Shown here in pieces: positions 57,001-60,000 of a DNA stretch of 64,000 nucleotides; position 1 is the stretch's first letter; every line of letters starts with the position of its first letter. Location of the stretch: NCBI RefSeq assembly GCF_001677475.2, contig NZ_CP012498.1, one strand, 5' to 3'. Made by a program: the position numbers. The stretch comes from Escherichia coli. GTDB taxonomy: Bacteria; Pseudomonadota; Gammaproteobacteria; Enterobacterales; Enterobacteriaceae.

Positions 57001-60000
57001 AAAGAAGGTGTACCACGTTCAAAACTGGTCTTCGCTTTAAGCCGGGTAGGTACCGAAGCGGAAGAGCTGGATGCTCGTGCATATATCAGTGAAGCGGGTT
57101 ATGAAACTTTATCTGGATGCCTTTTTGAGAAGCCAGCATACAGAAAAGCGATGAATTCAGGACTCGCAGTGACAGAAACACGTTATAAAGGTTTAAACGA
57201 GAGAGCAGATGAACTTATTCAGGCACTCATCGATAAGATTGGAGAAGAGTAATGGCTGATGCATCAAAACTTAAAACTAAAAGGGCCCGTGGTGGGCTGG
57301 GTGTACCCCCAGGCCCCGACGAATTGGCTACCAGCCTGAATGCGCCTGAGATAGCACCGGCAGTCGCTGCAATACCGCAGGCGGACTTATCGCCTGTGAA
57401 CCATGACCCTATGGTTACGCAAATAGTTACCGAGGCATATACCCGCCGCGATGGTCGTTCTGCCAGAAAAACAAACAGGACGCTGGCATTTGCGACACGT
57501 GTCACACCTGCTTTCGACCAGGAAATCCGGGATATCGCGGAGCGTGAGGGGTTGAAACTGGTGGAAGTTCTGGAAAAAGCAGTTGAGGCATATAAGGAAA
57601 AACAGGGGTATTAATCCACAACGCGGCTATCTTGCTGCATTCTTTTTAATGCTTCAATCTGGCAGCAAGATTGAAGCTAGCTAAATGCTATATTGTTGCA
57701 AGATAAATTGTATGATACTCAAACTGAGTATTTAAACGCCCCGGCGAAGTACGCAGTTTGAGTTCTTACCAGTGGTTTATGAACGTATTTACTCAATGTG
57801 AGTCGTTACGGGGCTAATGTGAATTGAAGTGGTCAACAAAAACTGGCCACCGCGTTAGAGTTTTTCCAGTATCGATTTTCCGATTCGTTTGGGGGTAACC
57901 CACCGTTATATTCGTGCGGTCTTAGTGCGCTGTAATATCCAACGATATAGTCCGTTATGCGTGAGCTGCCTCGCTGAAGCTTACGTAACCCACCACCGGC
58001 ATCCATTCGTTCTTCAGACTCCTGAAGAAGCGTTCCATTGGGCTGTTATCCCAGCAGTTTCCGCGCCGGCTCATACTCTGCCTGATCTGGTATCGCCACA
58101 ATAACTGCCGGAACTGCCTGCTTGTATAATGACTGCCCTGATCGCTGTGGAACATCACCCCGCCGGGCTTACCACGGGTTTCCCATGCCATTTCCAGCGC
58201 TTTCATGGTGAGCCTGCTGTCCGGCGAGAACGACATGGCCCAGCCCACTGGTTTTCTTGCGAACAGGTCGAGAACAACGGCGAGGTACGCCCGGCGCTTA
58301 CCCGTCCAGATACAGGTCACATCACCGCACCACACCTGATTTGGCCCGGTCACGGCGAACTGCCGTTCAAGGTAGTTAGGGATAGCAACATGTTCATGAC
58401 CACCACGTTTATACCGGTGAGTCGGCTGCTGACAGCTGACCAGCCCCAGCTCTTTCATGAGCCTGCCAGCAAGCCAGCGTCCCATCTGGTAGCCTCTCCG
58501 GGTTGCCATTGTGGCAATGCTTCTTGCTCCGGCCGAACCGTGGCTGATGCCATGTAGCTCAAGTACCTGACTGCGTAATACAGCCCGTCTGCCGTCTGGT
58601 TTTTCAGGACGGTTTTTCCAGTATCTGTAGCTGCTGCGATGAACCCCGAACACATGGCAGAGTGTGGCCACAGGATAATGCGCTCTGAGTTTCCCGATTA
58701 TCGAGAACTGTTCAGGGAGTCTGACATCAAGAGCGCGGTAGCCTTTTTTAATATTTCATTCTCCATTTCAATGCGTTGTAGCTTTTTCCTCAGCTCACGT
58801 ATTTCGATTTGTTCTGGTGTTATCGTAGAGGCTTTTGGTGTTTTGCCCTGACACTCATCACGCAGTTGTTTGACCCATCTTGTCATTGTGGAAAGGCCAA
58901 CATCCATAGCTTTGGCGGCATCTGCCACCGTGTAGTTCTGGTCAACAACCAGTTGAGCGGATTCGCGTTTAAACTCTGCGCTGAAATTTCTTTTTTCATT
59001 GAAGCACCTGTGTTGTTCTGAGGTGAGCATATCACCTCTGTTCAGGTGGCCAAATTCAGTGTGCCACTTCACTTTCCCGAGGTTCGGCAGCTCTGTCCGC
59101 AGCCGTCGAATCTCTTTCAGTACATCAGGATGCCAGTGCTTTTTTCGTCGCACCAGAGGCGTTTTACTGTGCGGGATAAGACCTTCAGGCCCGCCCTTGT
59201 TCAGCAACTGACGCCACCAGTAAAGCGTACGGCAGGACACGCCAAACGCTTCAGAAGCCGCAGAAATACCGTGTTTATCCCAGAAGTGCTGAGTCTTCAT
59301 TCTCATTGTTGCCATATCAGCCATCACTGAAAGCCTCAACGCATAATCGGCTGTTTGGTAGTACTTAGGATAGCCAACCATCAGGTGCTGCATTTGCATG
59401 ATGCAATCTCCCCTTACTTATCCGGAGGTAATTGCAATATCTCTGTGAACTTACACAGGGAGGTTACAGCAAGTTTGACTTACGAATCCTACGGTAAGTA
59501 GTAACCCGGAGGCGGACGCAGGCACGCCTTTTCTGGGCTGATGCTGGTCTGACTGCACTGAAGCGCCTTTATGAAGGGAATGCCTGTTTATCCGTTTTCC
59601 GGCAGTCTCTTTTTCCTTACTGGCATTGTACAGGCATGAACAACCAGGCTGTCAGGAAGGCCGCTCCCCTCAGGGAACGGGGATGAACGTGCGCCTGCGG
59701 CGCTCATTCTTCTCCCCCGCCTTCTCTGTTTATGCCCAGTCAGAAATGACATTACCTTCCCTGTGATTATTCGTTAGCGTCCCTGACGGCCCGCTAACGC
59801 GGAGATACGCCCCGACTTCCGGGACCACTCCGACCGCGCACAGAAGCATTTTCATCACCGACAGGCCGTATGGCTTTATAGGGTGGGAGGGGTACTGGTG
59901 ATATCCGGACGACTGTACCGGCTTACGCCGGGCTTCGGCGGTTTGACTCCTGTGCCACAGGTAACGACATCATACCGCTTTATATGTGCTACGCGCATAT

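Follow-up and report, generated by a model that had tools for sequence, protein, structure and literature searches.

IS911, the IS3-family insertion sequence (IS) studied by the Chandler laboratory, has 36-bp terminal inverted repeats, and its circle junction contains 3 to 4 bp of flanking bases (PMC2909936). Its OrfA is a protein of 100 amino acids (aa), and its OrfAB, which is produced by a -1 frameshift, carries a helix-turn-helix (HTH), a leucine zipper, and a DDE domain; catalysis requires OrfAB, with OrfA serving as a modulator (PMC2909936). Canonical OrfAB is 382 aa long and ends like that of the copy in plasmid pE16EC0715, while the intact relatives of the variant type considered here have a 389-aa OrfAB. 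We analyzed an IS911-family element in a 64,000-nucleotide (nt) stretch of an Escherichia coli F-type plasmid (NCBI RefSeq assembly GCF_001677475.2, contig NZ_CP012498.1); this whole stretch is referred to below as the window. The element resembles IS911 in having an orfA/orfB overlap with the heptamer A AAA AAG and in its matches to HTH_Tnp_1 and rve, and it differs from intact E. coli IS911 copies by two 1-base losses, five missense changes, and the absence of a target duplication. We put at roughly 90% the probability that it is a fixed, decaying, non-autonomous relic of the IS911 family within nested dead mobile elements.

The element occupies positions 57825 to 59071 on the minus strand (1247 bp), and a search across the 64-kb window found no second IS911 copy. 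Read on the minus strand, it starts with TGAAGTGGCACAC in the left terminal inverted repeat (IRL), whose first base, T, is at 59071, and ends with GTTGACCACTTCA in the right terminal inverted repeat (IRR), with the final base of ...GACCACTTCA at 57825. As references we used the copies in E. coli C and E. coli D1 that the Prokaryotic Genome Annotation Pipeline (PGAP) annotates as 'IS3-like element IS911 family', the pE16EC0715 relative, and published oligonucleotides. In alignments, the 36-bp IRL (TGAAGTGGCACACTGAATTTGGCCACC...; 59036 to 59071, minus strand) is the same as in intact copies, and the 36-bp IRR (57825 to 57860, minus strand) is the same as in the E. coli D1 and E. coli C copies and matches the published canonical IS911 IRR oligonucleotide (IRRa/IRRb, PMC2909936) at 35 of 36 positions. 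Both repeats carry the TG...CA termini of the IS3 family. Against the E. coli D1 copy (annotated 'IS3-like element IS911 family transposase'), the element has two 1-nt deletions and 11 substitutions, with 98.96% identity over 1253 columns (BLAST); its identity to the canonical-like copy in pE16EC0715 is ~92%. The programmed -1 frameshift heptamer A AAA AAG (58743 to 58749, minus strand) is intact, and its surroundings are identical to those in the E. coli D1 copy. When the entire window was scanned against Rfam, no family fell inside the IS. The ALIL/AL1L frameshift pseudoknot with which some matches are annotated belongs to other IS3 elements. By its alignments, the window element is a pseudogene member of the E. 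coli IS911 variant. The two lesions described below are deterministic differences from the aligned references and not a statistical pattern.

The first lesion (lesion 1) lies directly behind the orfA start codon. In the segment 58991 to 58999 (minus strand), the ATG at 58999-58997 is followed by six A residues (A6; 58996-58991) and then G, one A fewer than the A7 shared by four comparison copies (E. coli C, E. coli D1, the pE16EC0715 relative, and the sister plasmid contigs L010 to L012). Translation of the intact E. coli D1 copy gives a 100-aa OrfA, MKKRNF...NSSR; with A6, the native ATG leads into a 38-codon out-of-frame open reading frame (ORF). When a 71-mer spanning this lesion was compared with 5,426 complete E. 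coli genomes, no record reached 99% identity; the top matches had no gap and a single mismatch, and the one that was inspected proved to be an independent A6 relic. The chromosome of E. coli O145 RM9872 (L020, 1601 to 2797) holds an independent and far more decayed IS911 relic with the same A7-to-A6 slip, and because this slip arose independently there, the A7 run behind the orfA start is a recurrent (homoplastic) slip site. In that relic the frameshift heptamer has A5, not A6, and the E. coli C copy (L002), although annotated 'programmed frameshift', likewise has A5. Such a deletion would bring orfB into the reading frame of orfA.

The second lesion (lesion 2), at 57960/57959, shortens orfB. 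The window reads CACG-CATAA against CACGC(C/A)ATAA elsewhere, the site being CACGCCATAA in E. coli D1 and E. coli C and CACGCAATAA in pE16EC0715 and the O145 copy. The missing base produces a premature in-frame TAA at 57957-57955, where the orfB frame (a mechanical ORF of 238 aa, 57955 to 58671, minus strand) terminates with ...SFSEAAHA. The 41 C-terminal codons (...ASFC) lie in another frame; the translated OrfB of the intact E. coli D1 copy ends ...ASFC. The displaced C terminus makes up the last 41 codons of a 57-aa ORF (57833 to 58006, minus strand), the product of which is the same on 5 other contigs. Exact look-ups of four possible truncated OrfB products gave no match, and that of the 57-aa tail ORF succeeded. 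Among Pfam families, rve was matched over its full length in the orfB frame (E = 4e-31) and rve_3 at positions 2 to 42 of 67. In the same 5,426 complete genomes, all full-length matches to a lesion-2 71-mer among the matches listed carry the extra base; one complete-genome record in the band of at least 99% identity stands outside the matches listed. The orfA/orfB architecture of IS911 is recognizable yet broken: the ATG is out of frame and orfB is 41 codons short, with the heptamer (58749-58743) intact. Relative to both intact references there are also seven lineage-specific substitutions, five nonsynonymous, one synonymous, and one in the 5' untranslated region (59002). OrfA has two missense changes, R50C and P59T, and OrfB has three, E>G (58346), Y>C (58313), and W>R (58293), of which Y>C falls within GDVTYIW, the motif with the first conserved Asp in IS3-type transposases. 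Five of the six coding substitutions specific to the lineage thus alter the protein, and this ratio of 5 nonsynonymous to 1 synonymous indicates relaxed constraint.

The A6 slip, together with the entry of IS911 in a frame where the IRL has no stop, creates a chimeric ORF of 233 aa (58698 to 59399, minus strand; stop TAA at 58700-58698), which begins at the native start codon of an interrupted IS481-like gene (ATG 59399). Its residues 1 to 109 are the N terminus of an IS481-family transposase, residues 110 to 130 (21 aa) are read-through of the IRL and the orfA leader/5' untranslated region, and residues 131 to 233 contain OrfA residues 3 to 100. The fusion contains the Pfam domains HTH_28 at aa 39 to 79 (its IS481-type part also matching HTH_23) and HTH_Tnp_1 at aa 136 to 207, and it matches the NCBIfam families IS481 at aa 33 to 132 (profile positions 2 to 101) and IS3 at aa 142 to 224 (profile positions 1 to 85). 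The exact 233-aa product was found in public assemblies. In the A7 version, carried by sister plasmids, the incoming frame stops 10 codons past the orfA ATG, which gives a 143-aa ORF followed by a normal 100-aa orfA. The chimeric ORF is thus a mechanical by-product of the A6 deletion and of the frame in which IS911 entered. An earlier note on this stretch, made from the sequence alone, had reported six A residues in place of seven after the orfA ATG, a shift in frame of the orfB 3' end at ...SFSEAAHA, and the 233-aa ORF running through the terminal repeat into the 5' fragment of another transposase gene. All of this is borne out by the alignment to all copies compared, the translations, and the ORF listing. 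The start of the note's span (57817 to 59399) lies 8 nt outside the element, which ends at 57825. Read-through fusions of this kind have close counterparts: the same 90% cluster contains EGJ97836.1 of Shigella flexneri, also such a fusion, which another 1-nt deletion produced, and the nested and decayed IS pseudogenes of Shigella and E. coli plasmids are alike in IS-in-IS insertion, frameshifted transposases, and chimeric ORFs with an open IRL.

Upstream of the IRL lies a 385-bp 5' fragment of an IS481-family element (59072 to 59456, minus strand), cut after codon 109 by IS911 and recognized from its left end and its relatives. The left end, defined by four unrelated flanks, is (G)TGTAAGTTCACAGAGATATTGCAATT at ~59456, and a Shine-Dalgarno-like GGGGAG (59415-59410) precedes the start codon. 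Sequences 90 to 95% identical to the fragment are held by 711 plasmid records, many of them annotated 'IS481 family transposase'. IS481-family elements of IncF-type plasmids (pV7_BUTI_Uro_1 and pATCCBAA1673_01, for example) share the start codon and the HTH region, and their left end and first 109 codons are 93 to 94% identical; full-length copies encode 348 to 372 aa with HTH and rve domains, whereas the window fragment has neither the catalytic rve portion nor a right end. The best NCBIfam family of a full-length relative is IS481 (NF033577), at 221.3 bits against a cut-off of 224; the window fragment matches positions 2 to 101 of the same profile with 64 bits, under the cut-off of 224 as expected of a partial sequence. 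Given the NF033577 match, the PGAP names of the relatives, and the 221.3-bit score of the full-length relative, the interrupted gene is, as far as profile and annotation can place it, an IS481-family transposase gene, in keeping with the disrupted IS481-like transposase of the earlier note. A right-end repeat matching the left end (TGTATGGGTCCACCACATATTGCAATT) is present in the pE16EC0715 contig (L001), so that the element shows the defined ends and, by its four flanks, the movement among contexts expected of an IS481-family IS; the rest of the element, meaning its 3' part and right end, was sought in the 64-kb window and is absent. In the same contig (3361 to 4601), the 92%-identical canonical-like IS911 copy has entered this IS481-like gene independently, 22 bp farther upstream and with a GGAC/GAC duplication, and two IS911-type insertions no more than 25 bp apart in this gene may mark a local hot spot.

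The IS481-like left end in turn abuts a remnant of a hok-family toxin gene (59457 to 59501, plus strand), which consists of the last 14 codons and the stop (REVTASLTYESYGK, compared with ...YREVTATMAYESGGK at the end of full Hok). The locus is accordingly a three-deep stack, IS911 in an IS481-like element in a hok remnant, all of it dead. Adjacency of the IS481-like left end to a hok-family gene was seen in three contexts (window 59457-59501, L005 1331-1492, and L006 1346-1495). In pV7 and a Salmonella Poona plasmid, the left end lies 5 to 13 nt upstream of the hok start codon, and in the window it lies inside the gene; the adjacency could reflect target preference or selection for toxin inactivation.

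The flanks of IS911 are AAG on the IRL side (59074-59072) and ATT on the IRR side (57824-57822), with no 3- to 4-bp target duplication, and a simple IS911 insertion was rejected because of this absence. Past the IS911 site, written here as a slash, intact IS481-like genes run on as ...CTCGGTAAAG/AGCAGATTTTTG..., with AAAG/AGCAGATT...; this continuation (AGCAGATTTTTG) is absent from the window. The IRR instead abuts the region downstream of the partition genes, parA and a gene for a 120-aa protein (57615 to 57824, plus strand). In a Klebsiella plasmid, homologous sequence runs past the exact IRR junction point into the parM start codon, and in pCFSAN004179G the IRR is 66 bp nearer the par genes than in the window, which suggests repeated IRR-adjacent deletion. 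The missing target duplication, the loss of the IS481-like 3' part, and the junction of the IRR with the partition locus lead us to infer that insertion of IS911 was followed by one or more IRR-adjacent deletions or, alternatively, by recombination between two IS911 copies.

IS911 has parted the parA/120-aa pair from its former downstream sequence. The region beside the IS911 insertion point contains the repeat ACTCAAACTGAGTAT (57715-57729), which recurs at L021 2756-2770 just before the Klebsiella parM start and is probably a partition-site or operator repeat. Within IS911, an IS110-family element occupies exactly the position 58140/58141 in several related plasmids (L011 4492-5866, L013, L014, and L004) and is found twice in pCFSAN004179G; in the window's lineage, several draft contigs also break at 58140/58141. 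This fixed position is consistent with a sequence-specific (RNA-guided) target of the IS110 type.

We found the lineage of the window through exact-protein look-ups, and it is represented only in draft assemblies. Two contigs, L015 (GCA_012660385.1) and L016 (GCA_029619415.1), are 100% identical to window positions 56168 to 64000 (7,833 nt), with both lesion-spanning 71-mers present. Six further contigs with lesion 1 (L007 to L009 and L017 to L019) end inside the IS, and two of them are Logan assemblies of Sequence Read Archive runs; at most one of the carrier assemblies can be the window's own source. In PLSDB and the 5,426 complete E. coli genomes, the two-junction arrangement was found at no place covering at least 80% of the 2.1-kb query. 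Lesion 1 is absent from contigs L010 to L014. Among these, L010 (GCA_036681075.1) has the same IS481-like/IRL and IRR/partition-locus junctions and is 99.2% identical over 2.77 kb; it carries lesion 2 with A7, and its 100-aa orfA is intact behind the 143-aa upstream ORF. L011, L013, and L014 likewise combine lesion 2 with A7, in addition to the IS110-family element at the equivalent of 58140/58141. Since A7 is still whole in sister plasmids that have the orfB deletion, lesion 2 came first: lesion 2 and most of the substitutions are older than lesion 1, which occurs only in the window's clonal sub-lineage.

These observations can be arranged in a putative sequence of events. An IS481-family element would first have entered a hok toxin gene, and IS911 would then have inserted at codon 109/110 of the IS481-like transposase gene. 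An IS911-associated deletion, or recombination of IS911 with IS911, may next have removed the remainder of the IS481-like element, erased the target duplication, and joined the IRR to the partition locus. Without selection on the transposase, the missense changes (R50C and P59T; E>G, Y>C, and W>R) would have built up, a one-base deletion would have shortened OrfB and OrfAB by 41 residues, and last, in the window's sub-lineage only, one A would have slipped out of the A7 run. This slip linked orfA to the open IS481-like 5' ORF through the stop-free IRL, giving the 233-aa chimera. Since neither a normal OrfA nor a full-length OrfAB can be made, we infer that the copy is inactive on its own and incapable of autonomous movement; any OrfAB made from it would lack the last 41 residues and carry three missense changes. 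The earlier note had called the copy probably non-autonomous, which is a sound judgment. With its ends intact, the element might in principle be mobilized in trans by an intact IS911.

Some points weigh against this account of a dead relic. The lesions are defined against PGAP-annotated IS911 family copies and published oligonucleotides rather than the ISfinder canonical sequence, and the sequence data fit both adjacent deletion and recombination between IS911 copies. The presumed inactivity of an OrfAB shortened by 41 residues is deduced from the incomplete match to rve_3 and from how conserved that region is in general, and transcriptional or ribosomal slippage may restore the frame on the A-run at a low level. 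The last point, taken further, would make lesion 1 leaky: slippage of transcription on the A-run, or a -1 slip of the ribosome on G AAA AAA G soon after initiation, would restore some OrfA, and the copy would be hypomorphic and not null. A -1 shift out of the ATG frame does enter the orfA frame, and lysine-codon A-runs are known slippery sequences, IS911's own signal being A AAA AAG. However, A6 is short for efficient transcriptional slippage and stimulatory elements are not evident; even with OrfA restored, OrfAB would still be truncated and mutated, so that autonomy would not be regained. We consider a leaky copy very unlikely. The lesions might also be homopolymer sequencing or assembly errors, at one or both sites, in a copy that is really an intact IS911, a concern the earlier note had itself raised. 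Lesion 1 does lie in a homopolymer, a classic error site, but both lesions lie in sequence that is identical over 7,833 nt in two separate NCBI drafts, and lesion 1 recurs in six more contigs. Lesion 2 is outside a long homopolymer (GCC to GC) and is inherited across sister plasmids that differ at ~1% of other sites, and the five missense changes also speak against a hidden intact IS911. The alignment to IS911-family copies shows both one-base lesions to be real relative to every intact copy compared, and their presence in independent assemblies contradicts the error explanation, which we regard as barely credible.

A functional reading of the chimeric ORF deserves the same scrutiny. Truncated transposases inhibit other elements, and the chimera could be an exapted, expressed fusion of an IS481-type HTH with OrfA that binds IS911 ends, heteromultimerizes with OrfAB from intact IS911 copies, or does both, and acts in trans as a regulator or inhibitor of IS911. 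The ORF has the native IS481-like start codon with its GGGGAG motif 10 nt upstream and keeps the whole HTH_Tnp_1 region of OrfA. With a TrxA extension at its N terminus, OrfAB[1-149] kept the ability to bind IRR and to form mixed dimers in vitro, if less avidly (PMC2909936), which makes a regulatory role conceivable. Against exaptation, a promoter scan found no sigma-70 consensus promoter upstream of the ORF, the A6 carriers are clonal (100% identity) and so give no evidence of selection, the fusion is missing from the ancestral A7 form, and R50C and P59T are present in its OrfA part. A slip to A6 is also seen in the plainly dead chromosomal relic, as neutral decay predicts. We therefore find it very unlikely that the fusion has been exapted, and slimmer still is the chance that, expressed from the IS481-like translation signals, it is a trans-dominant IS911 modulator in strains with this plasmid, perhaps linking the ends of both families. 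If so, the fusion would be a regulator that arose naturally from transposases and was caught just as it emerged. A decaying, non-autonomous relic remains our preferred reading of the locus.

The rest of the window has the makeup of an F-type conjugative plasmid, with TraI (1058-6394), sok (10597-10757), CopA RNA (11564-11652), and a Rep3-type initiator (RepFIB-type; 54049-55026) in the backbone. The plasmid also carries a complete-looking type VI secretion cluster (~21700-45000, plus strand), which includes TssC (22196-23674), TssF (24616-26418), VgrG (27354-29336), a TssM-like protein (35785-39189), and ClpV (39193-41724), as well as TssA-like proteins. At 51637-51870 (minus strand), a 77-aa ORF ending ...FYCCELCCNPACAGCS resembles the precursor of heat-stable enterotoxin (STa), and sister contigs have a Pfam Enterotoxin_ST gene at the corresponding site. 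A 157-aa ORF at 61244-61717 (minus strand), with a weak match to Peptidase_C58 (YopT-like effector protease), is flanked by IS630 (60168-61199) on one side and an IS3-family orfB (62517-63392) on the other.

Plasmids of E. coli and Shigella commonly carry nested, frameshifted IS copies and chimeric ORFs formed by read-through, and the window case is one more instance. The finding is accurate yet ordinary and raises no new biological question. For annotation, the locus is best described as an IS911-family pseudogene in an IS481-family pseudogene in a hok remnant, and the 233-aa ORF should not be annotated as a transposase. It is also a clean small case in which the decay of an IS can be followed step by step and dated across sister plasmids, from the orfB lesion to the later slip in the A-run.

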